64,000 nucleotides of DNA, taken from positions 13,849 through 77,848 of the forward strand of contig JAYZLP010000020.1 in NCBI GenBank assembly GCA_036154155.1, in the 5' to 3' direction. Made by a program: the position numbers and the translations under genes. Origin of the DNA: Thermoplasmatota archaeon (GTDB lineage Archaea; Thermoplasmatota; Poseidoniia; Poseidoniales; Thalassarchaeaceae). Positions 1,947-46,146 of the stretch are shown here, in pieces (position 1 is the first letter of the stretch; every line of letters begins with the position of its first letter). Under the pieces are notes generated by a model that saw only the letters and a program-made list of their open reading frames with translations, ran no database searches and had not been told where the DNA came from.

Positions 1947-2660
1947 ATGGGGGGGTGGATGTTCACCCTATTCGTCTTCATCATTGGTCTGACTTGCGTG
2001 GCTGTCCCCTACTTCGCCTCCAACAACATCGCAGCAAGCTATCTTGGAACAGTTTGGGATCCCGAGATACCATTCGACCGAGACTTCCCCGTGATCAATT
2101 GGATGATCATCCCGTACGCCGCGCTGTACCTGTTCTACCCGGCTACCCTGATAATCGCCCCACGTAACGACAGGGGAAGGATGGAACTCGCCCTGGGAAT
2201 CCAGGGGCTAGCTCTCGCTACGATGTTCTGCGTCTTCTTCTTCATGGCTCTGCCCGCAGAGATAGACCTCAGGGACCAGCTCGATACCCATTGGCTGGAT
2301 CACCCTCCGAACGCGTTGGAGGAGGCGCTCTTCGGCTTCATCCACTTCTCGGATAATCCCTGGAACGCATGGCCGAGCCTCCACATCGTCCACTCGTACC
2401 TCCTGGCCAGGCTGATGACCCTGTGGGTAGTCAGGGAGTACCCGGAGAGCAAGGCGGCCTCGGCATTCCTGGCCATCCTCTGGATCGAGTGGGTGCTCCT
2501 ATGCATAAGCATCCTCGCCACCAAGCAGCACTACCTGTTCGACCTTGTTACCGGCGCATTGGTCGGAGTGGCATGCTGGAGGCTCTTCCTACCCGCTATG
2601 GAGATGGTAGAACAAAGGGGGCCATCGGAGATGGCCACCGAGTCCGGCTGGCAGGACTAG
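1947..2660 (+). CDS. PAP2-superfamily membrane phosphatase/transferase-like protein
   Basis: Polytopic membrane protein with PAP2-like motifs (WPSLHIVHS ... KQHYLFDLVTG). Confidence 0.55.
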   Translation: MGGWMFTLFVFIIGLTCVAVPYFASNNIAASYLGTVWDPEIPFDRDFPVINWMIIPYAALYLFYPATLIIAPRNDRGRMELALGIQGLALATMFCVFFFMALPAEIDLRDQLDTHWLDHPPNALEEALFGFIHFSDNPWNAWPSLHIVHSYLLARLMTLWVVREYPESKAASAFLAILWIEWVLLCISILATKQHYLFDLVTGALVGVACWRLFLPAMEMVEQRGPSEMATESGWQD

Positions 2661-4780
2661 TTGTTGTAGACTATCGGCAGGAACGCGTTGGCCGCTGTCT
2701 CGCAAGCGTTCGCAACGTCATCCATCCTCTGTAGTACCCTGTACATGTGCATGGCTGCGAGGGCCTCATCCTCGCCCTCGCTGAAGACCAGGGACGCTGC
2801 CCTGCCCTCGACCATATCTGCATCGTGCTCGGCCAGGTTCACCTTGTCAATCAGCTCGCCCAGCTTCTCGCGGCCCGCCTTGGTGTATCCGGAAAGGGTC
2901 AGGTCACGGAGTGCCGTGACAGACTCCTCGTACAGGGCAGCGGTCCTCGCCACAGACTCGCCCATCTCCTTCAGGGCGCTCCTTGCCTCTTCGTTGCCGT
3001 AAAGCGGCCTGAACGATAGCTGCTCGGCCACGTTCTGCGCGTAGTCCGCTATCCTGTCCTGCTTGCTCAGCATCTCCATGAAGTCCTCGGACCTCAGGAG
3101 GAGGCTCCACTGGCCAGAGCCAATCGCCTTCCTCAGGTCGTTCTTGATGTTGTCAGCCCTGAGCTCAGCAGCCACCGTGGCCTCTATCTCTTCAGTAGGG
3201 TCCTTTCCGTCAGCAGCCGCGTTTACAGCGACCAGCATGTGCTCGACTGTCTCGTTGACCGCCTCGGCATGAGTGTGGAACAGCTCGAAGTAGGTGGGGG
3301 ATCCGATTTCGGGGCCACCACCAACCTCCGCGAGAGCGTCCTCCACGTGGATCTCATCTCCGCTCGTGCTCCAGATCACGTAAACAACACCGGCTAGCGC
3401 AATGGGTATCACCACCAGTAGCTTGATCGGGTCAGAAGCAACGGCGACGAATATCAATATCGAGCCGAATCCAGCAGCTGGGAGGCTCGCGACCCATGAA
3501 GCGAAGATCTTGCCGAACACCCTGAAGTCGACAGCCTTCGCGCCTCCAGCCAGGCCAACGCCGACCACTGCTCCGACCAGCGTGTGAGTGGTCGAGACAG
3601 GTACTGCGAGGAATGGCATCGAGAAGATCAGTATGGTGGTCGCGGCCCCGAACTCGGCAGCGAAACCCCTCGTGGGAGTGATGTCGGTGATCTTGGTCCC
3701 TATGGTGTCCATGACCCTCCATCCCCAGGTCATCACACCAATCGCTATTCCAGCGCTCCCAAGGAGCACCAGCCAAACGGGAACTTCAGCCGACTCGGCC
3801 AATTCCCCGCCGCTAGACAGGACCTGGTACACTGCCGCCATGGGCCCGATGGCGTTCGACCTGTCGTTAGCCCCATGGGCGAAGGCGACGTAGGCAGCGG
3901 TGATGACCTGCAGCCAGACGAAAATCCTCTCGACCCCGTGGAAGCCGTCCTCCTCTCCCTTGAACTCGTAGTTCCTCAGGACGTAACCGAGGACCGCTGC
4001 CGCAATAACGGCGACAATGCTGGCAAGAATCAGGCTGTTGATCGGGAACCAGGCGTTGGCGTCCATCGGGTTCCAGGAACCGTTCTCCTTGACTGGCAAC
4101 CAGTCGTACTTGCTCTCAATCCATCCCTCTGACTGCGCCCTCGAGAAGAAACCCTTCAGGGCCTTGAACTGGAGCGCCAGCCCTAGGACGAAGAATGTAG
4201 GTACAGCCAGTATCGGTGCGAGCCACCTGGATCTCCCAATCGGGTCGTCGGCCTCGAGGATCGTCTCCCTCACTATGAAGAAAGTGAAGAACGCCAGGAG
4301 GGCGCCCATCAGTGGGCTAGCCACCCAGGACATCACGACCTTCTGGATGACCTCCCAGTCGATCAGGGAGGTGTCATGCTGAACCTCGAGAACCAGTCCC
4401 ACACCGACAATACCGCCGATTATGCTGTGAGTTGTGGATACGGGCAGCCCGTATCTGGTTGCTACGGTAAGCCAAACCGCGGCAGCCATCATGGCCGCAA
4501 TGAACCCGTACATCAGATCGTTCGCGAAGCTTTCCGTGACCGTCTCGAAGTCCACAGAGAGGATGCCCTTTCGCACGGTGTCCGTAACCGCGTCACCAGC
4601 GAAGAACGCACCTGCGAACTCGAATATGGCGGCTATGATCACTGCCTGCTTGAGCGTAAGGGCCCTTGACCCGACAGACGTACCCATTGCATTGGCAACA
4701 TCATTAGCTCCGATGTTCCATGCCATGTAGGCACAAACCACCAAAGATACAATCAGGACTAGCGTCATTATCGGTTCCAT
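2657..4780 (-). CDS. pit: Inorganic phosphate transporter PiT family fused to C-terminal PhoU/DUF47-like domain
   Basis: N-terminus NIGANDVANAMGTSVGSRALT and internal GANDRSNAIGP are PiT signature repeats. The last ~210 aa are helical and acidic, PhoU/DUF47-like (..LRSEDFMEMLSKQDRIADYAQNV..). Confidence 0.8.
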   Translation of the reverse strand: MEPIMTLVLIVSLVVCAYMAWNIGANDVANAMGTSVGSRALTLKQAVIIAAIFEFAGAFFAGDAVTDTVRKGILSVDFETVTESFANDLMYGFIAAMMAAAVWLTVATRYGLPVSTTHSIIGGIVGVGLVLEVQHDTSLIDWEVIQKVVMSWVASPLMGALLAFFTFFIVRETILEADDPIGRSRWLAPILAVPTFFVLGLALQFKALKGFFSRAQSEGWIESKYDWLPVKENGSWNPMDANAWFPINSLILASIVAVIAAAVLGYVLRNYEFKGEEDGFHGVERIFVWLQVITAAYVAFAHGANDRSNAIGPMAAVYQVLSSGGELAESAEVPVWLVLLGSAGIAIGVMTWGWRVMDTIGTKITDITPTRGFAAEFGAATTILIFSMPFLAVPVSTTHTLVGAVVGVGLAGGAKAVDFRVFGKIFASWVASLPAAGFGSILIFVAVASDPIKLLVVIPIALAGVVYVIWSTSGDEIHVEDALAEVGGGPEIGSPTYFELFHTHAEAVNETVEHMLVAVNAAADGKDPTEEIEATVAAELRADNIKNDLRKAIGSGQWSLLLRSEDFMEMLSKQDRIADYAQNVAEQLSFRPLYGNEEARSALKEMGESVARTAALYEESVTALRDLTLSGYTKAGREKLGELIDKVNLAEHDADMVEGRAASLVFSEGEDEALAAMHMYRVLQRMDDVANACETAANAFLPIVYNN

Positions 4781-4901: not shown

Positions 4902-5966
4902 GTGAATCATGAGGGAGCACCTAAGTCAGAGGTAAGGAGATTACAACAGACTGGTGGTTCCACATTCATAGTCAGTCTGCCTAAGAAGTGGGTTACAGAA
5001 CATGGTTTGGCTGCCAAGGACCACGTGCGAATAGAGTGGCGTCCATCGGGAACCCTGAGAGTGATTCCAGAAGCATCATCCATTAGCAGACGTAGGGAGG
5101 TGGCAATAGATCTTGACGATGTTCCAGAGAACATGGTGTTCGATCACCTAGTAGCAGCTTATTTGGCAGGCACTCAGGTGATTAGAATACGTTCAACCTC
5201 CGGATTCTCTCGAACAGAGAGGAAGATATTCCGGAAATTCGTCAATACCTCAAGAGGCGTCGACATATCATCGGAAAGTGAAAACTCGATAGAGATGATA
5301 AGTCTACTGAGTCCTTCGGAGATGCCACTCTACTCAAGTCTGAATAGGATGTATCTCCTAATCCTGAGTCAAATTAGAGATGTCGTAGACGTTCTTGGAG
5401 GTTCAGATAAGGAAGTTCTAGAGGACTGCCATGAAAGAGAGCAGGAGGTGGACGCGATTAGGCTACTTCTTGAGAGGCAGGTAGGGCAGATATTGGAGTC
5501 TGCTAGTATCGAGGACTCTTTGGGGACTTCGAGATGGGAGGCGTCGGAATTGGGAAAAGTCGTTAGGACGATGGAAAGAATGGGCGATCACTCATATGCT
5601 CTTTGCAAATTAACTTTGGAGAGGGAGGACAGCAGTCAATTGTCGATCGAAGAAACACCCTTGGATGCAATTCCGGTGTGGCAGGAATCGATTAAACTCC
5701 TTATCTCTAACTTTCGGAAGAGAAAGGTATCCGAGATTCACTTGGCCAAGGAGAGACTTTCTTCAGCCTTAGTGGGTCTCGAGGATTTCGAGACACAACT
5801 CAGATCTAGTTCTATGGAAATCTCAGAAGCCCTATTCCTGGACCGTATTTCTGAGTCTCTAAGGAGGATATGTGCCTATTCCATAAACATGAGCGAGATT
5901 TTACTGAATATTCAATCTCACAGAGATTCCTTTGAGGTTTCTTCCCCTCAATTTGGTAGAATTTAG
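4902..5966 (+). CDS. phoU: Phosphate uptake regulator, PhoU-like domain with N-terminal SpoVT/AbrB DNA-binding domain
   Basis: N-terminal LQQTGGSTFIVSLPKKWV is a swapped-hairpin AbrB-like motif. The rest is a helical PhoU-like repeat architecture. It sits next to pit. Confidence 0.7.
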   Translation: MNHEGAPKSEVRRLQQTGGSTFIVSLPKKWVTEHGLAAKDHVRIEWRPSGTLRVIPEASSISRRREVAIDLDDVPENMVFDHLVAAYLAGTQVIRIRSTSGFSRTERKIFRKFVNTSRGVDISSESENSIEMISLLSPSEMPLYSSLNRMYLLILSQIRDVVDVLGGSDKEVLEDCHEREQEVDAIRLLLERQVGQILESASIEDSLGTSRWEASELGKVVRTMERMGDHSYALCKLTLEREDSSQLSIEETPLDAIPVWQESIKLLISNFRKRKVSEIHLAKERLSSALVGLEDFETQLRSSSMEISEALFLDRISESLRRICAYSINMSEILLNIQSHRDSFEVSSPQFGRI

Positions 5967-10203: not shown

Positions 10204-10800
10204 GTGCTGCGAATCGGGTTGGTCATGCTTCAGGGTGCAAGGCACGCCCATATTGCCTCAATAGAGGCAGCATCCTCCAACTCCAATATTCCGGTGGAGG
10301 TTCACGAGATTAGAAAGCTCTCTGACCTCCACTCCTCCGATCCACATGCGATAATCTTGCCAGGTGGCGAGTCAACCACGATGAGGCTCACTGGATTGGA
10401 TAAGTCATCCAACCTTCTACCCGGTCTTTTCCAATGGATAAGGGACAAGCCCGACCGCCCAGTACTGGGAACGTGTGCGGGAGCAATCCTTCTCTCCGAC
10501 CCCCAGGATGGGGGCCTCCCTCTAGTCGATGCTTGCATCGATCGCAATGCGTACGGCAGGCAGTACGACTCCTTCCAGGACACCCTCTACTCGCCACTTC
10601 TGGGACGCGATTTTCCCGGAGTTTTCATCAGGGCCCCGAGATTCACATCCAACGACGCGGAGATTTCAGCGATGCACGGCGACGAGGTAGTTGGCGTTAG
10701 GTCGGGCAACGTCATAGCACTCACATTCCATCCGGAGCTGTCTGGCGATCACGGATTCCACGACTGGCTCCTGGGGTCTGCGAAGGAGGCTATGGAATGA
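10204..10800 (+). CDS. pdxT: Pyridoxal 5'-phosphate synthase glutaminase subunit
   Basis: IGLVMLQGARHAHI, ILPGGESTTM, GTCAGAILL, FHPEL class I glutamine amidotransferase triad motifs of PdxT. Confidence 0.85.
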   Translation: MLRIGLVMLQGARHAHIASIEAASSNSNIPVEVHEIRKLSDLHSSDPHAIILPGGESTTMRLTGLDKSSNLLPGLFQWIRDKPDRPVLGTCAGAILLSDPQDGGLPLVDACIDRNAYGRQYDSFQDTLYSPLLGRDFPGVFIRAPRFTSNDAEISAMHGDEVVGVRSGNVIALTFHPELSGDHGFHDWLLGSAKEAME

Positions 10801-11933
10801 GCATCCTTCCTAATTTATCTGAAGTGGCAGAGGTTGCCGACCTCGCAGATTGCGAAGGCTGCATACAATGCCAGATGGGAAGCAAACTGGTTCTTTTCAT
10901 CACTGGGAACTGTCATTGGAGGTGTGACTATTGCCCTCTCTCCGAGAGTAGACGCGATATCGACTTCATGTACGCCAATGAAAGGCCTTGCGAGTCATTC
11001 GACGAGGTGATTGAGGAGGCCCGGGCCATGCGAGCAACAGGGGCTGGAATAACGGGAGGGGATCCGTTGATGGCAAGGGAGAGGTCGCTGGAGGGAATTA
11101 GGGCCCTGAAGAAGGAATTCGGCCAAGATTTCCATCTTCACATGTACACCAGCATCCCATTTCGCCCGGAGTGGGCCTCCGATTTCGCAGATGCCGGCCT
11201 CGACGAAATCCGCTTCCACTTTCTTGACCTGGAATCCGATCAATACAAGGAAACAATTGCGGCCTGCGCGACCTCTGGAATTCTAACTGGGGTAGAGTTG
11301 CCCTGCGAGCCGGATAAGGAAGATGAGCTGATGGGGATTTTGGAAGAGATGCGGGATTTTGAGATAAGCTTCTTGAATCTCAACGAGCTTGAGATTACGG
11401 TAGGAAATCACGACAATATGGAGCTTAGGGGATTCAACCTGTCAACGGAAATCACTGCAGGGGCCGAGGGCTCTTCTGAGCTCGCACAATCACTCAGGGA
11501 CAGGGTAATGGCGGCTTCAATTGGCGCAAGAGACCCCCTAGACGGAAAGGTCAGGGAGCCGTACGGATTTCACCTGAAATACTGCACTTCGGTCTACAAA
11601 GACGCAGGCCAGATGAGGAGGAGGTTCATGCGAAGAGGCGAGGCCTCTATCGCCCCCCACGAGACACTAAGCGAAGATGCGACATTGGTTTTCGGAGTAA
11701 TTTACTCGTCGTTTGAGGACCACCGTGGATGGATGGAGGAGATTTCCGAGTTCACCGGCCTCCCAACCAGGTTCCTCCATTACGACCCTGAAGAGAGCAG
11801 GATAGAGATGCCAATTTCAGTCGCCGAGGAAATCTCAGAAGATGTAGAAGCCCCAGTTGCAGTAATCGAGGTCACCCCAACTTTCGATCGTACCGAGGTA
11901 TCACTAGTGTGGCTCAACGAACTCAGGCCCTGA
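10797..11933 (+). CDS. Radical SAM protein (archaeal COG2108-like) with additional N-terminal CxxCxxC cluster
   Basis: CHWRCDYC (CxxxCxxC) radical-SAM motif preceded by CEGCIQC. 4-nt overlap with the pdxT stop. Confidence 0.7.
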   Translation: MSILPNLSEVAEVADLADCEGCIQCQMGSKLVLFITGNCHWRCDYCPLSESRRDIDFMYANERPCESFDEVIEEARAMRATGAGITGGDPLMARERSLEGIRALKKEFGQDFHLHMYTSIPFRPEWASDFADAGLDEIRFHFLDLESDQYKETIAACATSGILTGVELPCEPDKEDELMGILEEMRDFEISFLNLNELEITVGNHDNMELRGFNLSTEITAGAEGSSELAQSLRDRVMAASIGARDPLDGKVREPYGFHLKYCTSVYKDAGQMRRRFMRRGEASIAPHETLSEDATLVFGVIYSSFEDHRGWMEEISEFTGLPTRFLHYDPEESRIEMPISVAEEISEDVEAPVAVIEVTPTFDRTEVSLVWLNELRP

Positions 11934-11981: not shown

Positions 11982-13826
11982 GTGCCAGTCAATTCAGCCG
12001 AACCGGAGGACAACTCGGTAAACCCCTACAGGAGGCTATCAGCCTCCCAGATGGTTACTTGGCAGGCATGCCCCCGGCTCTGGTACTACAACTATATTCC
12101 AAAATTAAGGGGCCCTCTGCCTCCCCAGATAATCAGGGGAAATGCAGCAGAATCATGTATTTCCAAAGTATTGAGGGACTCTCCCTCAATGGTACCGGCA
12201 AATTCCGACAACCTCCTGAAGTCCCCCATTCTTGATGATGGCAGTCCCGCCTATCAGTTCAGCGAACTATGGCCCGCACCTTCGCTCCTTCCTCTGGATA
12301 GTTCCGATTGGCCATCCACAAGAGGATCCCTCGAGGAATGGGCACTCGCTCGCGCGGAGGCCCACTTCCAGTCATCATGGGATTCAGCGGTAATTGACTG
12401 GGAGTCAATCTCGAACAGGACCGGGTCCTCAGACGGGGCGAATGAGCAAGAATGTAGGGAAATGGTGGCCAATGGAATTCGAATGCACATCGACCAGGTC
12501 GAGGCTTGCATGAAGGCCGGAGGGGGGCCGCACGCAGAAGAGTGGAGATCGGGCAAGCATAGGCACAATTGGCCTGCTCCTGATGGATTCCCGCGAGTGT
12601 GGGAAGAGCCGCATCCCTGTGCACAGGAAACCGGCTCCGAGATTTCATGGTGTGAGGCTTGGGAGTTGGCCCGCCCTTGGTTCGTTGATCCCGATGCGGG
12701 GTCATTTACACAGACCACATCACACCCCGAAGGTTGGTTCCAAGGGGAATACGACTTGGTTTACAGGTGGACTGGCAAACCTTCCGTAATTGACATCAAG
12801 GCCTCCAAGGGTAAGGGGGACAGGTCGGGGGGATATTTGGAGCAACTCAGGCTATACGCTTGGCTGTGGTGGGAAACCCACGACAGAACAGAGGAAGTAG
12901 AGTCACTTGGAATTTGGTATCTCGGCCCGGGCTCGGTCAAGGACGTGCCATTGCCGACCTCGGAGGAACTTCACCAGTATGGCAGTGACTTGAAGGAAGT
13001 GTACGAACTAATTCACGCCAAAGACCCCCAAATCGAGGATTGCCCCGCAGAACCCGCCCCACTTCGTTACTTCGATGAGGGCGGAAAGCCTTCCAAGAAC
13101 CCAGTTGATTCGAATCCCCTTGCAAGATGCATCAATTGTGACGTTAGGGGGGTCTGTGAGAATGGAAATCATGACCTAGACCTGCCGCTTGAGGACAGGA
13201 TTGAGAGGTTCGGGCATGCATGGCCGATTACTCATATGGGGGAGCTGAAGACTAGGGTAGATGCGACTGGAATAGTTTCCGAGCTCAGGGGTCCGCGCCT
13301 CCAGGAGGACGACACCATCGAGCTTTCTTTCAAGCTACTGGACGGATATGACAGGGCCAAGGTTAGACCCTCTCGATATGGCGCTCCAAGCAGGGTTACG
13401 AGGTCAATCTCAAACGACTGCAGGGTAATTGTGGAGAATGCAATACCCTCAGTTTGGAGAGGGGAGATGATTCTCGAACTGGATGAAAAATCTTCGATCT
13501 CCCTTGCAGGAGATGATGATTCCGAACCCATTGTGGAAATAGAGACTAGAACCAGCATAGTTGGCAGGATCTGGTCCGTCGACGCATTCCCTACTGGAGC
13601 CGGGGTCTCAAGATGGTCTGTAACCCTCCTCGACAAGTCAGGATCTGCAGGGGCCGTCGCATTCAAACAGTTCATTCCAGTAACCGCCGCTAGCATGGGC
13701 AGGGGTGACGAGATAGCTATCCTGAACGGGGAGGTGGGAGAGTTCAATGGACGGCCACAGGTCAGAATTGGGCCTAATACCAGAGTTGTGCCACTCCGTT
13801 CCTCTGACGATTTGCCTGATTATTGA
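11982..13826 (+). CDS. Large Cas4/RecB-family PD-(D/E)xK nuclease with 4-Cys Fe-S cluster and extended N- and C-terminal regions
   Basis: N-terminal Cys in QACPRLWYYNY. Core motifs GEYDLV, VIDIKAS and QLRLY (QxxxY). C-terminal CINCDVRGVC (Cx2Cx5C). No cas genes or array nearby. Confidence 0.65.
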   Translation: MPVNSAEPEDNSVNPYRRLSASQMVTWQACPRLWYYNYIPKLRGPLPPQIIRGNAAESCISKVLRDSPSMVPANSDNLLKSPILDDGSPAYQFSELWPAPSLLPLDSSDWPSTRGSLEEWALARAEAHFQSSWDSAVIDWESISNRTGSSDGANEQECREMVANGIRMHIDQVEACMKAGGGPHAEEWRSGKHRHNWPAPDGFPRVWEEPHPCAQETGSEISWCEAWELARPWFVDPDAGSFTQTTSHPEGWFQGEYDLVYRWTGKPSVIDIKASKGKGDRSGGYLEQLRLYAWLWWETHDRTEEVESLGIWYLGPGSVKDVPLPTSEELHQYGSDLKEVYELIHAKDPQIEDCPAEPAPLRYFDEGGKPSKNPVDSNPLARCINCDVRGVCENGNHDLDLPLEDRIERFGHAWPITHMGELKTRVDATGIVSELRGPRLQEDDTIELSFKLLDGYDRAKVRPSRYGAPSRVTRSISNDCRVIVENAIPSVWRGEMILELDEKSSISLAGDDDSEPIVEIETRTSIVGRIWSVDAFPTGAGVSRWSVTLLDKSGSAGAVAFKQFIPVTAASMGRGDEIAILNGEVGEFNGRPQVRIGPNTRVVPLRSSDDLPDY

Positions 13827-13912
13827 TGGCGCCGAGAGAGGGATTTGAACCCCCGCGTCCAATGGACAGTGGATTTCGAATCCACCGCAATACCGGGCTA
13901 TGCGATCTCGGC
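13827..13912 (-). tRNA. tRNA-Ser (anticodon CGA), long variable arm, CCA encoded
   Basis: Reverse complement gccgaga..ggtgga-ttCGAaa-tccac-tgtccattggacgc-ggggg-ttcaaat-ccctc-tctcggc-g-cca. Confidence 0.8.
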
Positions 13913-13967: not shown

Positions 13968-14168
13968 ATGAGGGTCGAGGTCATGCACTCGGAACAAGTA
14001 CTGGTCGTCGAATCAGAGGGCCCCCTGTCAGTTTCAGAGATCCTAAGAACTCTGGAAATACCCCCTTCCACGGTTCTCGCAGTTTTCGAAGATACGATAG
14101 TCCCGCACACATCCGTAATCAAGGATGATATCAGATTGGATTTGGTAATAGTTTCATCTGGGGGATAA
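13968..14168 (+). CDS. ThiS/MoaD-like small ubiquitin-like sulfur carrier / SAMP candidate (66 aa, C-terminal GG)
   Basis: ..LAVFEDTIVPHTSVIKDDIRLDLVIVSSGG* matches the ThiS pattern (VNGEIVPRS..L.DGD.IEIV..VGGG), and the stop immediately follows the GG. Confidence 0.55.
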   Translation: MRVEVMHSEQVLVVESEGPLSVSEILRTLEIPPSTVLAVFEDTIVPHTSVIKDDIRLDLVIVSSGG

Positions 14169-34262: not shown

Positions 34263-35882
34263 ATGGTTGAGGACGACTGGTCCGAGAGGCAGCGGATACT
34301 AGCTTCTGCAGGCATTCTTGTTCTCGCCTCAGCAAAGGAAAAGATTCAGAAAATTTCAGACATTCAACCACTAATCGAGGCAGCCCGCTCCTCCGGAGTA
34401 AGGATGTTAGACTCAAGAACCGTTGAAGAACTCCTAACTTTAGTGCCTACCCACGAACCTCCTATCGTCGCCCAGACCCCTACAAGGAGCGAACAATCCA
34501 CACTTCCAGACCCCCAGAGCCATTCCTCTCATGGCCGAGTGGTAGCACCTTCTAGTGCTCTGGAGCTTGCACCTCCCCCACGGCCACATGGCCTGGCCAA
34601 TTACGACTTGGCAGAGTTCCCAATGCAGGCAAGGGACGTGGATGCAGAAATCGAAGTACACTTTGACATCACTGGGCACTCCGTTACAGAGGGAAAGATG
34701 TCGGACATGAAGGCATGTTTCACAGATAGATTGAGGAGGATAAGGGGCATGATGGTCAACTCAAACGTGCTTCCCAGAAGGCCGATATCTACGTCCGAGG
34801 CATGGAGGAATAGGCAGAGGCACTCAACCAAGGACTATGAAATTACTATGGTGGGTCTCGCCAGTGAAATGCGTTGGACAAAGAACAAGAATCTCATGTT
34901 TGTTATCGAAGACGAGTCCAGTCAGATCTCATGTCTCGTGAAGCCACCCTCTGATGCATCCGAGGTCCACCCCGCGCTCGACGGACTCATGAATGACGAT
35001 GTTGTTGGGGTCAGTGGGTCATTCCTAATAGGAGAGAGGGACCCAATATTCTTCGTCCAGGACATCCATCTTCCCCCCTTGGGCAGGCACTCAAAGAATA
35101 GTGCTGGTCAGGATAGAGCGGTTTCTGCCGCATTCCTTTCCGACATGCACGTCGGTAGCATGACATTCCTAGGGCCTCAGTGGGAGAAGATGATTAGGTG
35201 GTTCAAGACAGACCCTCTTGCTAGAACAATCAAGTATTTTGTACTAAGTGGAGATGGGGTCGATGGAGTCGGAATTTATCCGGGTCAAGACAGGCATCTG
35301 GCAATCAAGGACTTATTCCAGCAGTATGGGGAGCTTGCCCGACTTCTTGAGGACATTCCTGATTGGGTAGATGTCATCATCCTCCCCGGCAATCATGACG
35401 CCGTAAGGCCTGCAGAGCCACAACCAGCATTAGATCCAGAAGTGCAGCAAGATTACTCAGATACCACCTTTGTGGGCAATCCCTGTGACTTCAGCCTAAA
35501 TGGCGTCAGAGTCCTTTCTTACCATGGGAAGAGCATTGACGATTTCGTCGCCACTTTGAGGTCTGTGTCATATTCGGAACCAGAGAGGGCGATGCAGGCC
35601 ATGCTTGAGAGAAGGCATCTGGCACCCTCATGGGGTGGCAAGACTCCCCTTTCCCCTGAGCCCGAGGACAATCTTGTTATTTCCACAATTCCAGATATTT
35701 TTGTCACTGGACACGTACACGGGCACTTCGTTGGAGGGTACAAGGGTACTACCATGGTACACAGCTCTACATGGCAGAATCAGACGGATTTCCAGAGGAT
35801 GTTGGGTTTCCAACCAAAGCCATGCATTTTGACCGTAGTCAACTTGCACACCTTCGCAACAGCCTCCATACCGTTCGCATAA
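34263..35882 (+). CDS. DNA polymerase II (PolD) small subunit DP1
   Basis: Calcineurin-like phosphoesterase motifs: AAFLSDMHVGS, VLSGDGVDGVG, IILPGNHDAV, VTGHVHGH; OB-fold region upstream. Confidence 0.85.
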   Translation: MVEDDWSERQRILASAGILVLASAKEKIQKISDIQPLIEAARSSGVRMLDSRTVEELLTLVPTHEPPIVAQTPTRSEQSTLPDPQSHSSHGRVVAPSSALELAPPPRPHGLANYDLAEFPMQARDVDAEIEVHFDITGHSVTEGKMSDMKACFTDRLRRIRGMMVNSNVLPRRPISTSEAWRNRQRHSTKDYEITMVGLASEMRWTKNKNLMFVIEDESSQISCLVKPPSDASEVHPALDGLMNDDVVGVSGSFLIGERDPIFFVQDIHLPPLGRHSKNSAGQDRAVSAAFLSDMHVGSMTFLGPQWEKMIRWFKTDPLARTIKYFVLSGDGVDGVGIYPGQDRHLAIKDLFQQYGELARLLEDIPDWVDVIILPGNHDAVRPAEPQPALDPEVQQDYSDTTFVGNPCDFSLNGVRVLSYHGKSIDDFVATLRSVSYSEPERAMQAMLERRHLAPSWGGKTPLSPEPEDNLVISTIPDIFVTGHVHGHFVGGYKGTTMVHSSTWQNQTDFQRMLGFQPKPCILTVVNLHTFATASIPFA

Positions 35883-42707: not shown

Positions 42708-44201
42708 TTGGAAATGAGTAACAATGAGCGTACATTGCTCAAATTCATGTTATCCGAACCATCCAGAACTTGGACCTTGGACGAACTCCTTTCAGGTGCT
42801 GGCTGGGATGACCAGGTCCATGTCGCAGGCTCGGGAATGGCTCTTTCCGAGTTAGGCCTAGTAACCGTAAATGAAGAAATCGAGGCCTTTGTTTCCCTGG
42901 GCGAAGAGGGTGTGAACGCCCATCGCGAGGGCCTCCTGGAGTTCAGAATTTGGAACTGCCTCTCTTCTCTGCCTGAATCAGAGAGGACGATGGATAGGCT
43001 ATTCGAGGAGGGGTTTGAGCGCCACGAAGCAGGTCCCGGCATAGGCCTACTGAAATCCATGGGGCTTTCAATCGATTCTGGAAGGCTGGTCGTCGAGGAC
43101 GAGATATCAATTTCTAAGCAGATTTCTGTAAGATCAGAATTCATCTCTTCTTTGTCAGAAGGCCCCGTTGCCAAGTTAAAACTAGATGACGAAATGGTTA
43201 GCCATTTCCTGGGGAGGAAGGGATTAATTCTGATCAATGAGGAAACCTCCAGATCTTGGTCACTAACCGATGCCGGCTCATCGATTGAACAATCAGAACT
43301 TGAGCATGTTGAGATGATCGGTGAGGTAACGCCAGAGTTGCTCCAATCAGAAAACTGGAGGGGTGCGAAGTTCAAGCCCTTTGATGTAAATTCACCAGCA
43401 CCAATTCCCATGGGCGGGCGCCCCCATCCCATGCAGGCGTTGATAGAGAGGATAAGACAGGTCTTCTTGGAGATGGGGTTCTCGGAGATAGAGGGGGACT
43501 TTGTGCAGTCTGCAGGATGGAATATGGACGCTCTTTACATCCCGCAATCTCATCCAGCAAGGACCATGCAAGACACCTTCTACCTGTCTGAGCCCAGTCA
43601 AATCGATGTCGATGAACACTATCTCGATCTTTGGTCCAAGGTTCATGAGCACGGACACGACACAGGAAGTAAAGGCTGGGGCGGCTCCTTTGACAAGGAT
43701 GAGTCACGCAAATCATTACTGAGGACTCATACGACTGTAAACACTGTGAGGCACATCGCGGAGAATCCCGATGAACCCTCAAGGGTTTTTGGCATTGGAA
43801 GGGTTTTCCGTCAGGAGACGATCGATCGAACCCACCTTCCTGAATTCCACCAGATTGAGGGGATAATCCACGAGGAAGAAGCTAGCCTTCCGATGCTTAT
43901 CACAACTCTGAAGACGTTCTACTCCAAGATGGGCTACCCAGATGTCCGAGTACGACCCGCCTATTTCCCATACACGGAGCCTAGTGTGGAGGTGGACATC
44001 CTTTGGAGGGGCCAATGGCTTGAGCTAGGGGGGGCTGGAATATTCCGCCCAGAGGTCACGGAGCCGCTAGGCTCCAAGTGGCCCGTGTGTGCATGGGGGA
44101 TGGGGCTAGAGAGACTGGCAATGATTATACTAGACCTGGACGATATACGGCAGTTGTACCAACCAGATCTTGAGAGGTTGAGTCGGATGCCCATACTCTG
44201 A
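42708..44201 (+). CDS. pheS: Phenylalanyl-tRNA synthetase alpha subunit (archaeal/eukaryotic type)
   Basis: Class II core motifs FRPAYFPYTEPSVEVDI, GAGIFRPEV, AWGMGLERLAMI. Confidence 0.85.
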   Translation: MEMSNNERTLLKFMLSEPSRTWTLDELLSGAGWDDQVHVAGSGMALSELGLVTVNEEIEAFVSLGEEGVNAHREGLLEFRIWNCLSSLPESERTMDRLFEEGFERHEAGPGIGLLKSMGLSIDSGRLVVEDEISISKQISVRSEFISSLSEGPVAKLKLDDEMVSHFLGRKGLILINEETSRSWSLTDAGSSIEQSELEHVEMIGEVTPELLQSENWRGAKFKPFDVNSPAPIPMGGRPHPMQALIERIRQVFLEMGFSEIEGDFVQSAGWNMDALYIPQSHPARTMQDTFYLSEPSQIDVDEHYLDLWSKVHEHGHDTGSKGWGGSFDKDESRKSLLRTHTTVNTVRHIAENPDEPSRVFGIGRVFRQETIDRTHLPEFHQIEGIIHEEEASLPMLITTLKTFYSKMGYPDVRVRPAYFPYTEPSVEVDILWRGQWLELGGAGIFRPEVTEPLGSKWPVCAWGMGLERLAMIILDLDDIRQLYQPDLERLSRMPIL

Positions 44202-46146
44202 CCACGATTACTGCCATAATCAGGAATGACAGGATCTCTCCACCATTAGGCGGGATAATTTCAGAGAAGTCCGCTATTGAATTCGATACTTCGGACGCCT
44301 GACCCGGAGGCCCTCCTCCGCAACCATCGGGCGGAGGTCCAATCCCGGGGCCCCATGTTTCGCCGTGTCCAGAGCAGTCAGCGCCACCTCCTTCCCCATT
44401 CTCAGAGTAAACCTCCCCTCTGTAGCAGTTTATGAAATAGGGAAAACCAATCCCTCCTTCTCCATTCTCCCAGGTTGTGTGATAGTGGTAGATTCCATCT
44501 GGATAGTCCGGCGTTGGACCGTATTGGCCGTTACAAGAATCCAAGTCTCCGATCCCAGGAGAATATTCGTAGTCATCTATTCCGTTATACCCGGTCTCGC
44601 CTTCCTTGAGCCTGTATGAGGATTTCATTTCAGTTAACTCTCCTTCATCATCCCATCCAACGAAACCATAGATTGGGTATCCATCTAAGGCGAAGCCCAC
44701 TATTGGAGAGTGACTTGTGATTGACCTCGTTGACTCCAAGCTGTAATCAGCCCAGGTTTCTCCACTTTCTTCATCGGGGTGCCAGTGCAAACAGTTCGCA
44801 TCGGCGTGGTAGTGAAACTCCCCGCCTGGGCCTGAGTGGGCATGACAGATCCCTAGCCACACATGCTGCCTATCTTCCTCGTAGGCCCCCTCCTGTCCAG
44901 CTACTGCATCCCCACCGGGCCCATCCTCAGGCCCAAAAATAGGCACCCCATTCGCAGCGAAAGCAACTGCTCCCCTTTCCGGTGCCATGGTGCAACCATC
45001 GGTGGAGATAGATGGATCACACCCAGTCTGATTAGTGGGCTCGAGTGGTATCGTCCATACATGTTCCTGTGCGCTTGTGCAGCAGCCGGGTCCAGACTCA
45101 AGGTCGTGATTTGGAAGGCCATTGGCGGAAATTTGTATATGGGTCTCGTTGGTGGTAAAGCTGAGTTGGCAAACGTGATTGTCAAATTCACTAGTGTTGT
45201 AGTCGTCTATTCCTTCAACCTGTTCTGTGGAGTCACACAATAGCACATCTTCCCACCATTCCTCTGTTCCAGCCTCGATCTCCTCCGATTGTTCATCGTA
45301 CTCGCACGAACCGTCATCCTCCTCAGCGCCAGAGTCGTAGTTGTTGGCCTCTGGGTCTGTGCAACCAGTGACTGGCGCTGGCTCGTCGTACTCGCACGAA
45401 CCGTCATCCTCCTCAGCGCCAGAGTCGTAGTTGTTGGCCTCTGGGTCAGTACACCCTTGAGTTGGTTCTGCTTCAGTTTCCAGAACAGTAATGGTGACAA
45501 TTTTCTGACTTGATGTTTCAGTCCATATGCCACACGTAGCCTCTAGTGAGACCGTGGTGTTTTCCTGTAGGTTGGAAAGCTCCAGAATGTAGCCCCCATC
45601 TTCGTCTATTGGCAGCCCTAGGCTGGACTCTTCGATATCGGTGGTGCTCCACCTCAATTCACATGTCGAAGCGTCATCGTGGATTACAAGTCCGGAGATC
45701 GGAGCATCCCCTCCACGTTCAACATGGAACTCGCCCTGAGAAGTCGTAAGCTCCGTTTCACTCTCTTCAGGATAGTGAATAATGAAAGCTTTGGACCACG
45801 ACGTCTCTTGCCCCAGACTGTCTATTGCCACAACCTTCAGTGCATGGCTACCCACATCTAGTTCAGAGATGTCAATTGAGATCACGCCATACTGATCGGG
45901 TAAATCAGCGATTTCATCTCCGTCTAGTGTGACCAATAGTGAGAGGTCTGACATCTTCTCGTCGCTTATGGTGATTCTAACCGTGTCAACCGTGCCTATC
46001 AGTATCGTATCGGGAAGATCGGAGTCAACAGTGGGCGCGCGATTAAGTCCCTCGTCTTCAACGCCGAAGAAAAGGATGCCCGCCATCACACTGGTAATCA
46101 TGAGCCCAGCCAGCATCAATGACCTCGCGGCCCCTCCATCTTCCAT
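44125..46146 (-). CDS. Secreted YHYH-domain protein with Ig-like N-terminal region, tandem Cys-containing 30-aa repeats and C-terminal hydrophobic anchor
   Basis: Signal anchor. Repeats TQGCTDPEANNYDSGAEEDDGSCEYDE x2. C-terminal GEFHYHADANCLHWHP ... YHYHTTWENG motifs. The 3' end overlaps the pheS 3' end by 77 nt. Confidence 0.6.
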   Translation of the reverse strand: MEDGGAARSLMLAGLMITSVMAGILFFGVEDEGLNRAPTVDSDLPDTILIGTVDTVRITISDEKMSDLSLLVTLDGDEIADLPDQYGVISIDISELDVGSHALKVVAIDSLGQETSWSKAFIIHYPEESETELTTSQGEFHVERGGDAPISGLVIHDDASTCELRWSTTDIEESSLGLPIDEDGGYILELSNLQENTTVSLEATCGIWTETSSQKIVTITVLETEAEPTQGCTDPEANNYDSGAEEDDGSCEYDEPAPVTGCTDPEANNYDSGAEEDDGSCEYDEQSEEIEAGTEEWWEDVLLCDSTEQVEGIDDYNTSEFDNHVCQLSFTTNETHIQISANGLPNHDLESGPGCCTSAQEHVWTIPLEPTNQTGCDPSISTDGCTMAPERGAVAFAANGVPIFGPEDGPGGDAVAGQEGAYEEDRQHVWLGICHAHSGPGGEFHYHADANCLHWHPDEESGETWADYSLESTRSITSHSPIVGFALDGYPIYGFVGWDDEGELTEMKSSYRLKEGETGYNGIDDYEYSPGIGDLDSCNGQYGPTPDYPDGIYHYHTTWENGEGGIGFPYFINCYRGEVYSENGEGGGADCSGHGETWGPGIGPPPDGCGGGPPGQASEVSNSIADFSEIIPPNGGEILSFLIMAVIVVRVWASDSTSQDLVGTTAVYRPGLV
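45296..45447. repeat. Perfect 62-nt identity within a 90-bp tandem direct repeat (2 copies) inside the YHYH gene
   Basis: tcgtactcgcacgaaccgtcatcctcctcagcgccagagtcgtagttgttggcctctgggtc occurs at 45296-45357 and again at 45386-45447. Confidence 0.85.

Follow-up and report, generated by a model that had tools for sequence, protein, structure and literature searches.

In a 64,000-nucleotide (nt) stretch of a Thalassarchaeaceae genome (contig JAYZLP010000020.1; this whole stretch is hereafter the window), a gene for an unusually large Cas4-like nuclease lies among ordinary housekeeping genes, and the question is what such a protein does there. The open reading frame (ORF) occupies positions 11982..13826 of the + strand, starts with GTG, ends with TGA (the stop codon is included in the coordinates) and encodes a product of 614 amino acids (aa). 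The called GTG start is supported by the N-terminus, "MPV...RRLSASQ", which is kept among homologs. The original prediction, made from the sequence of the window, described an orphan Cas4/RecB-like nuclease that could serve in DNA repair or as a stand-alone, restriction-like defense effector. We conclude that its N-terminal 404 aa fall within the PD-(D/E)XK nucleases of the Cas4/AddB/Dna2/Exo5 kind (pfam12705, COG2887) and have a full set of catalytic motifs, that the C-terminal 210 aa are predicted to be two oligonucleotide-binding (OB) folds arranged like the single-stranded DNA (ssDNA)-binding core of RPA70, and that the gene is inherited vertically and belongs to the core genes of the Poseidoniales (Marine Group II archaea). 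It belongs to the B group of a nuclease-OB family with two paralogs, here designated A and B. The reading that we favor, with moderate confidence, is that B is a Poseidoniales-specific, housekeeping DNA-processing iron-sulfur (Fe-S) nuclease with an RPA-like OB pair, which serves at ssDNA ends or flaps in repair or replication and is not a defense protein.

Domain architecture of the encoded protein

Pfam PDDEXK_1 (pfam12705) matched residues 230-392 at E=7e-13 (49.5 bits against a cutoff of 22), and this domain is precomputed for essentially all homologs. The catalytic motifs are GEYDLV at residue 255 (E256/D258), VIDIKAS at 269 (D271/K273) and QLRLY at 288 (Q288/Y292). They are bracketed by ACPR at 29 (Cys30) and CINCDVRGVC at 383 (C383-x2-C386-x5-C392), whose four cysteines form a signature that binds a 4Fe-4S cluster in relatives; the cluster in B is putative. 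E256, D258, D271, K273, Q288 and Y292 are kept in 81/81 B and 88-89/89 A sequences, the sole exception being an X (unknown residue) at Y292 in one A, and C30, C383, C386 and C392 are all present in 80/81 B sequences. The PDDEXK_1 score and the invariance of the catalytic residues show that the motif set does not reflect chance matches, and the concern that it might be spurious can be dismissed. The Cas4/AddB motifs listed in the original prediction were each found at the place given, with the catalytic residues kept in 170 homologs, and its assignment to the Cas4/RecB-like nucleases is borne out by the profile match and the four-cysteine signature.

Cys30, the first putative Fe-S ligand, lies within N-terminal helices (residues 18-59; 12033..12158, +) with the pattern RRLSASQ...W.ACPRLWYY...RGNA.E. 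The focal clade, i.e., the closer relatives of the gene that are described below, keeps R18-Q23, W27, C30, R32, W34-Y36, G53 and E57 without exception, and the model places helices at 21-29, 31-38 and 50-65. A Trp-rich helical insertion domain follows (residues 60-229; 12159..12668, +), which was delimited by composition, model and conservation. Its 170 aa contain 10 Trp (5.9%), 28 D/E and 13 K/R and are net acidic. The domain was modeled with a pLDDT of 85-99 and long helices at 114-141 and 155-178, carries invariant C176-x4-GGP and WPAPDGFP motifs, and is also found in A paralogs and in rare bacterial relatives, so the acidic, Trp-rich insertion noticed earlier is a conserved helical domain. 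Cys176 (window positions 12507-12509, after QVE) is kept in all 170 A and B sequences, one B having an X, and is retained even in A proteins without the Fe-S cysteines. The PD-(D/E)XK core and C-terminal Cys cluster (residues 230-404; 12669..13193, +) were delineated by PDDEXK_1, conservation and Foldseek, and contain the motifs ARPWFVDPD, G255-E-Y-D258, D271-I-K273, Q288xxxY292 and C383x2C386x5C392.

Searches of PDB sequences with the focal protein and with the family profile returned no nuclease relative and only weak OB matches, and structure prediction was therefore needed. The full-length AlphaFold model (pLDDT 72) matched OB-fold proteins only when searched with Foldseek. Residues 1-404 were modeled separately, with 16 aligned A and B sequences as input (pLDDT 89, pTM 0.89). 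The best PDB match of this N-terminal model was Dna2 (5ean; E=4e-4, 418 aligned columns), followed by ACE1 (9iab; TMt 0.55), an Argonaute-associated Cas4-family nuclease; further matches were AdnAB, AddB, MGME1, Cas4 in Cas4-Cas1-Cas2, the Cas4 protein SSO0001, Exo5 and RecB. Its neighbors among viral models (BFVD) were RecB-family/Cas4-like exonucleases (TMt 0.53-0.69).

Residues 405-606 were modeled as two beta-barrels with a pLDDT of mostly 71-91 and one low block at 52. The first OB fold (~residues 405-510; 13194..13511, +) is suggested by beta strands at 406-508 (pLDDT 83-91), by Foldseek and by weak profile matches, including one to Saccharolobus SSB at residues 454-513. The second OB fold (~residues 520-606; 13539..13799, +) is suggested by profile matches, including a weak one to Pyrococcus Replication factor A (8aa9), and by the PF01336 OB fold at residues 525-596, which was below cutoff in the focal protein (E=0.006, 16.9 bits against 27) and is precomputed as a match in many homologs. 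When the C-terminal half was compared with the PDB using Foldseek, tandem-OB proteins were matched at E=1e-7 to 2e-10 over ~210 columns, namely HIN-200 domains, RPA70 DBD-A/B (1jmc, 4gop_C), POT1, Teb1 and TEBP-alpha. At the sequence level, PRK07218 ("single-stranded DNA binding protein") scored 14 bits against a cutoff of 447, the B profile matched an RPA-like protein (P0268) at E=2.7e-9, and hhalign to that protein gave E=2.9e-4 with a probability of 41%. The extra beta-rich C-terminal domain that had been proposed is present, and Foldseek identifies it as a tandem RPA-like OB fold. The protein ends in an acidic tail (RSSDDLPDY, residues 607-614; 13800..13823, +; consensus S-E-D-x-P-x-F), which was recognized by its conservation in the focal clade, where F/Y614 is nearly invariant. 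Similar D-L-P-x-W tails occur in other Thalassarchaeaceae B proteins and not in those of Poseidoniaceae. This tail with its terminal aromatic residue recalls the protein-recruiting acidic tip of bacterial SSB.

The neighbors of the models (Dna2, ACE1, AddB and viral RecB-family proteins) point to an Fe-S core of the pfam12705/COG2887 type with a helical insertion and an RPA70-like OB pair, and the protein is neither Cas4 proper, nor Dna2, nor AddB. With eukaryotic Dna2 (5EAN) it shares a PD-(D/E)XK nuclease, four bracketing Fe-S cysteines and the combination of a nuclease with predicted OB-fold ssDNA binding. Structural work on Dna2 has established that this enzyme takes in ssDNA by a free end and acts in cooperation with RPA. 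Unlike Dna2, B has no superfamily 1 (SF1) helicase domains and no match to Pfam Dna2 (PF08696), its OB folds are C-terminal, tandem and RPA70-like rather than single and N-terminal, and it comprises 614 aa as opposed to ~1050. Scans of focal B with Pfam and NCBIfam revealed no helicase domain, and there is none in A either. With Cas4 it shares the N-terminal Cys, the RecB motifs, QxxxY and Cx2Cx5C, together with the structural matches to SSO0001 and Cas4-Cas1-Cas2. However, the score of 18.2 bits with the Cas4 model TIGR00372 is below its cutoff (65), and PF01930 gave no match at E<=1; B is also three times larger than Cas4, has the 170-aa insertion and the tandem OB folds, and lies in a fixed housekeeping context without cas1/cas2 or CRISPR. 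Solo-Cas4 proteins do occur away from CRISPR loci (PMC5704561), and that of M. mazei binds a 4Fe-4S cluster and cuts DNA (PMC12501428).

In overall fold, the nuclease core is closest to the RecB-family/Cas4-like exonucleases of phages and archaeal viruses and to ACE1 (TMt 0.53-0.69 and 0.55, respectively). Those are single-domain proteins of ~250-290 aa from mobile elements or defense loci, whereas the focal family is cellular and OB-fused. The C-terminal 210 aa resemble RPA70 DBD-A/B in having two consecutive predicted OB barrels; in contrast to RPA70 and archaeal RPA, no zinc-ribbon or RPA32/14 partners are evident, and the OB pair is fused to a nuclease. A phylogenomic survey of Cas4 describes helicase fusions of pfam12705 and mentions no OB fusion (PMC5704561), and our literature searches found no existing description of a nuclease-OB family. 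The kind of nuclease is known, and the architecture, a putative Fe-S nuclease with a predicted RPA70-like tandem OB, is new, as is the paired arrangement of A and B.

Distribution and neighborhood in the focal clade

Of the 437 proteins returned by a homology search, the best 120 were almost all full length (611-616 aa) and 57-100% identical to the focal protein. The few homologs that carry names come from Marine Group II (Candidatus Thalassarchaeum betae, Thalassarchaeaceae or "Thermoplasmatota archaeon"), and the named members of more distant clusters are all Poseidoniales. The family is narrow, since a profile search of 1.84 billion cluster representatives gave 222 matches, and its members are annotated as "PD-(D/E)XK nuclease family protein" or "hypothetical". 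The focal protein is 33-43% identical to the B group and ~25% identical to the A group, which identifies the gene as a B ortholog. Rare bacterial relatives (P0203, P0205, P0208, P0258, P0456; L095:10001-11320) are 402-477 aa long and consist of the nuclease, the insertion and a single OB; four such proteins were found among 5.8 billion. Their contigs also carry genes for F-type ATPase and FtsEX, or genes of cytochrome and alginate types, and one of these contigs is 4.3 Mb long.

In the window, a radical-SAM gene (10797-11933, +; Radical_SAM and Fer4_12 domains, with DUF8061 also carried by homologs) ends 48 nt upstream of B, and a tRNA-Ser(CGA) gene (13827-13912, -) starts at the very next base past the B stop codon, as had been described from the sequence. 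The 40 window ORFs that were scanned with Pfam, a set that does not comprise every small ORF, are ordinary archaeal housekeeping genes, including those for aIF2alpha, L44e, the PolD small subunit, TFB, the glycine cleavage system and ETF. No cas domains were found among these 40 ORFs or in the gene tables of related loci, and no CRISPR-like direct-repeat array or tandem repeats were found in the 64-kb window, in agreement with the lack of CRISPR-Cas context remarked upon earlier. Two 81-nt direct repeats (45286-45456, -; 91% identical, 90 nt apart) inside ORF 44125-46146 are an internal coding repeat of a gene for a 673-aa YHYH-domain protein and not a CRISPR array.

Five focal-clade loci keep the gene order of the window. 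A metagenome scan for the focal clade yielded at least 458 related loci, of which 80 (57-100% identity) were fetched, and 80/80 share the block membrane protein - DeoC - SerC - PdxT - radical SAM - B - (peptidase S51) - PAC2 - aIF2alpha. Wherever a focal-clade locus extends far enough, the gene directly upstream of B is that for the radical-SAM protein. This gene was considered and rejected as a functional partner of B, being a neighbor specific to the focal clade, separated from B by an inserted GDPD gene in L002 and L003, and replaced by A upstream of B elsewhere. The term "orphan" was therefore not upheld: this is a Poseidoniales core gene with one fixed neighborhood in the focal clade and an ABCE1-A-B arrangement elsewhere in the order.

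These observations bear on the alternative that B is a stand-alone anti-virus or restriction-like defense nuclease that degrades invading DNA ends, as proposed for solo-Cas4, ACE1 and UvrD-Cas4 fusions. Cas4-family nucleases are often linked to defense, and ACE1, our second-best structural match, is an ssDNA endonuclease that works with Argonaute and is active in a heterodimer (PMC12094033). UvrD-Cas4 fusions occur in defense contexts (PMC5704561), and PADLOC matched B with Cas4 models only, at sub-threshold values (E=4e-4 to 0.02). What speaks against defense is the single housekeeping neighborhood in 80/80 focal-clade loci and the ABCE1-A-B block in 77/82 loci elsewhere, the order-wide distribution with kept gene order, in which no island-like variability was seen, and the TIGR00372 score, which is 18 bits where 65 are required. 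Neither the 40 scanned window ORFs nor the flanks contained genes for cas, restriction-modification, Argonaute or other defense functions, and no relative of the family was found in a search of IMG/VR viral contigs. We consider a defense function highly improbable, and the proposal of a stand-alone restriction-like effector was abandoned.

Paired paralogs downstream of ABCE1

Paralog A forms a second orthologous group (553-691 aa by naive start prediction) and has the same overall architecture as B, with every catalytic residue kept. In GTDB species representatives, 287 A loci were recovered, all of them labeled as Poseidoniales or unclassified archaeal metagenome-assembled genomes (MAGs) except for one contig of a MAG labeled as the bacterium "Yoonia sp." (L065, CAXRJJ010000121.1). 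This contig carries an archaeal A-B pair and is most likely a binning contaminant. The best 80 of the 287 loci and nine other A loci were analyzed (n=89). B directly follows A on the same strand in 77/82 loci with enough downstream sequence, with gaps of mostly -4 to 61 nt. ABCE1/RLI, the ribosome-recycling ATPase, directly precedes A in 75/81 loci with enough upstream sequence, the gaps being 12-180 nt with a 4-nt overlap in L088. Outside the focal clade, ABCE1-A-B adjoins PAC2-Nop10-aIF2alpha-S27e-L44e, and the A-B pair is intact in a lineage from which ABCE1 has moved away (L063, L065, L066, L073, L080). The homologs could have proved to be embedded uniformly in housekeeping recombination operons, and this was found in part: their context is uniformly housekeeping, but it consists of translation and proteasome genes and a paralogous nuclease, not of a classical recombination operon. 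One Poseidoniales lineage has MutS and MutL genes of bacterial type a few kb before ABCE1-A-B on the upstream side (L093/L094:1501-6112).

The position of ABCE1 raises the alternative of an RNA nuclease for translation quality control, in which A-B, co-transcribed with ABCE1, would act on stalled or recycled ribosomes by cutting mRNA or rRNA, and the OB folds would bind RNA. Such a role would accord with the close linkage of ABCE1 to A just described, with the translation and ribosome-biogenesis genes among the other conserved neighbors, and with the anticodon-binding type of the matching Pfam OB model, PF01336. Some PD-(D/E)XK enzymes act on RNA. All structural neighbors of the nuclease domain, including phage recombination exonucleases, are nevertheless DNA enzymes, and the tandem-OB neighbors (RPA70, POT1, Teb1, HIN) bind single- or double-stranded DNA. 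A and B also stay together where ABCE1 is located elsewhere (the five loci above), and focal-clade B is nowhere near ABCE1. The neighborhood itself is no argument for RNA, since archaeal replication genes cluster with the same translation genes: the L44e-S27e-aIF2alpha-Nop10 (LSIN) cluster and COG2047/PAC2 typically neighbor PCNA, primase and GINS genes in archaea (PMC2643942). As a hint at replication, this neighborhood is at most circumstantial, its orientation here being convergent. We regard an RNA substrate as improbable.

The two paralogs differ in what they conserve. All four Fe-S cysteines occur in 80/81 B sequences, as compared with 63/89 A sequences (by a quick alignment), and several A lineages have clearly lost them. 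Mean pairwise identity of the two OB folds is 0.44/0.53 in A as compared with 0.28/0.30 in B, and positions conserved at 95% or more number 26 in the OB folds of A versus 2 in those of B, whereas in the nuclease core there are 39 such positions in B versus 28 in A. The tight tandem and this complementary conservation form the pattern expected of two subunits of one machine. A and B are probably partners in an assembly of two nucleases and four OB folds, which in concept would resemble AddAB/AdnAB minus the motors. AdnA/AdnB and the AddB nuclease domain are among the structural matches (6ppu, 7sjr, 4ceh_B), AddB is also a PDDEXK_1 protein, and where A and B are paired, the family resembles AddAB/AdnAB in having two paralogous nuclease genes in tandem and in the asymmetric retention of its Fe-S cysteines (80/81 B, lost in some A). 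The tandem is a feature of the other Poseidoniales (77/82 loci) and is not present in the window or in the 80 focal-clade loci. In contrast to AddAB/AdnAB, neither A nor B has motor or helicase domains, OB folds stand in their place, B alone was found in the focal clade, and the A-B heterodimer is putative.

The same conservation data can be held against a further alternative, that B is mainly a non-catalytic or specialized RPA-like ssDNA-binding factor, such as an alternative SSB, whose nuclease domain is structural or regulatory (e.g., an Fe-S redox sensor). Its tandem OB fold of the RPA70 kind, the faint sequence similarity to RPA and SSB of archaea, and the acidic tail with a terminal aromatic, presumably similar to SSB-type recruitment tails, would suit such a factor. 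The catalytic residues are, however, invariant in 170 A and B sequences, which is unexpected for a degenerate nuclease, the OB folds are the least conserved part of B across the order, and a separate RPA-like protein (P0268) is among the matches. A non-catalytic role is accordingly judged quite improbable, and a catalytic DNA nuclease remains our favored reading.

Five A loci without B belong to a single Poseidoniaceae lineage (L082, L088, L090-L092). The slot after A is occupied in these loci by an RNase_T/DEDD 3'-5' exonuclease of 269-279 aa (L082:10290-11123, L088:11833-12669, L090:8630-9469, L091:9223-10062, L092:4327-5136), and their A proteins (605-607 aa) have lost the Fe-S cysteines. 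In L088, the 278-aa ORF after A was considered as a degraded B and rejected, as it encodes this RNase_T/DEDD exonuclease. A DEDD exonuclease in the B slot fits the theme of a nuclease pair, and one nuclease partner may here have been replaced by another that is not orthologous to it.

Neither A nor ABCE1 was found in the 64-kb window or within 10 kb of B in 80/80 focal-clade loci. An A of the focal clade was sought by tblastn of the window, by searches with the B and A profiles and in the GTDB scan (best 80 of 287), and none was assigned; two unplaced A types (P0417 and P0396) were looked up and yielded no focal-clade A. Every A that was recovered adjoins B or the DEDD exonuclease in a non-focal lineage. 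A is likely absent from the focal clade, which has probably lost it, unless divergence or sparse sampling keeps an A of this clade from being detected, and focal-clade B probably works alone or as a homo-oligomer. At matched nuclease identity, OB conservation in focal-clade B was 0.58 versus 0.50 in A-linked B (50-60% bin), a marginal difference that was not used.

Proposed activity and its significance

By analogy to Dna2, AddB, Cas4 and Exo5, the Fe-S cluster would staple the N-terminal helices onto the core and enclose the active site, so that a free ssDNA end would have to thread in. The RPA-like OB pair would bind the same ssDNA, feeding or positioning it. Such an enzyme would depend on Mg/Mn, cut ssDNA as an exo/endonuclease and remove 5' (or 3') tails, flaps or resected ends in recombinational repair or in lagging-strand or fork processing, and would in effect be a helicase-less Dna2 with a built-in RPA. 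In most Poseidoniales, A and B would act together as a motor-less counterpart of AddAB/AdnAB. The earlier suggestion of a novel DNA-repair nuclease is compatible with all of this evidence.

Several points weigh against our reading. All that points to a substrate (DNA or RNA), a polarity and Fe-S binding comes from distant relatives, no solved nuclease was matched at the sequence level, and the Foldseek E-values of the nuclease domain are 1e-3 to 1e-4. The OB folds of B evolve fast across the order and may serve protein contacts rather than DNA binding. The conserved neighbors are translation and proteasome genes (ABCE1, PAC2, Nop10, aIF2alpha, S27e, L44e) and not recombination genes, and no helicase partner was identified, so the assignment to repair or replication is drawn from the domains. 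The A-B complex is proposed solely from gene adjacency and complementary conservation, and the lack of A near B in the focal clade weakens the heterodimer step for the focal gene.

A broader proposal, which we put forward as a tentative and rather doubtful possibility, is that the Poseidoniales have a lineage-specific, motor-less machine for ends and flaps, composed of A and B with two active sites and four OB folds, in which the nucleases carry their own ssDNA-binding modules and which takes over part of the role that HerA-NurA or Dna2 has in other archaea and in eukaryotes. If so, the focal clade would be a natural "B-only" experiment and the L082/L088/L090-L092 lineage an "A plus DEDD exonuclease" experiment, and both would reveal a modular division of labor between 5' and 3' strand nucleases. 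Marine Group II ranks with the most abundant archaea of the plankton, its members are uncultured, and their replication and repair toolkit is known solely by annotation transfer. Should the proposed mechanism hold, B would be a nuclease targeted to ssDNA without a separate RPA or helicase. The biochemistry is tractable, as the recombinant proteins are of soluble size and the catalytic and Fe-S residues are known. The family also cautions against taking every solo Cas4-like gene for a defense gene.

Three further features of the window were noted. DNA polymerase D small subunit (DP1; DNA_pol_E_B and Metallophos domains) is encoded at 34263-35882 (+), ~20 kb from the nuclease gene, and is the sole clear replication gene among the 40 scanned ORFs. 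Between B and PAC2, a gene of the proteasome-assembly-chaperone family, lies a 66-aa ORF (13968-14168, +), which in the window runs 15 nt into the peptidase S51 gene at its 3' end. Its product ends in ...SSGG and has the look of a ubiquitin-like small modifier of the SAMP/ThiS/MoaD type; there is a weak Pfam SAMP2 match in L006, tblastn homologs were found in L001-L006, L008 and L009, and the gene is at the same position in the gene tables of the related loci examined. Finally, a 354-aa protein with an AbrB/MazE-type DNA-binding domain and a PhoU domain is encoded at 4902-5966 (+), adjoining a PHO4-PhoU_div phosphate transporter gene (2657-4780, -), and is likely a phosphate-uptake regulator.

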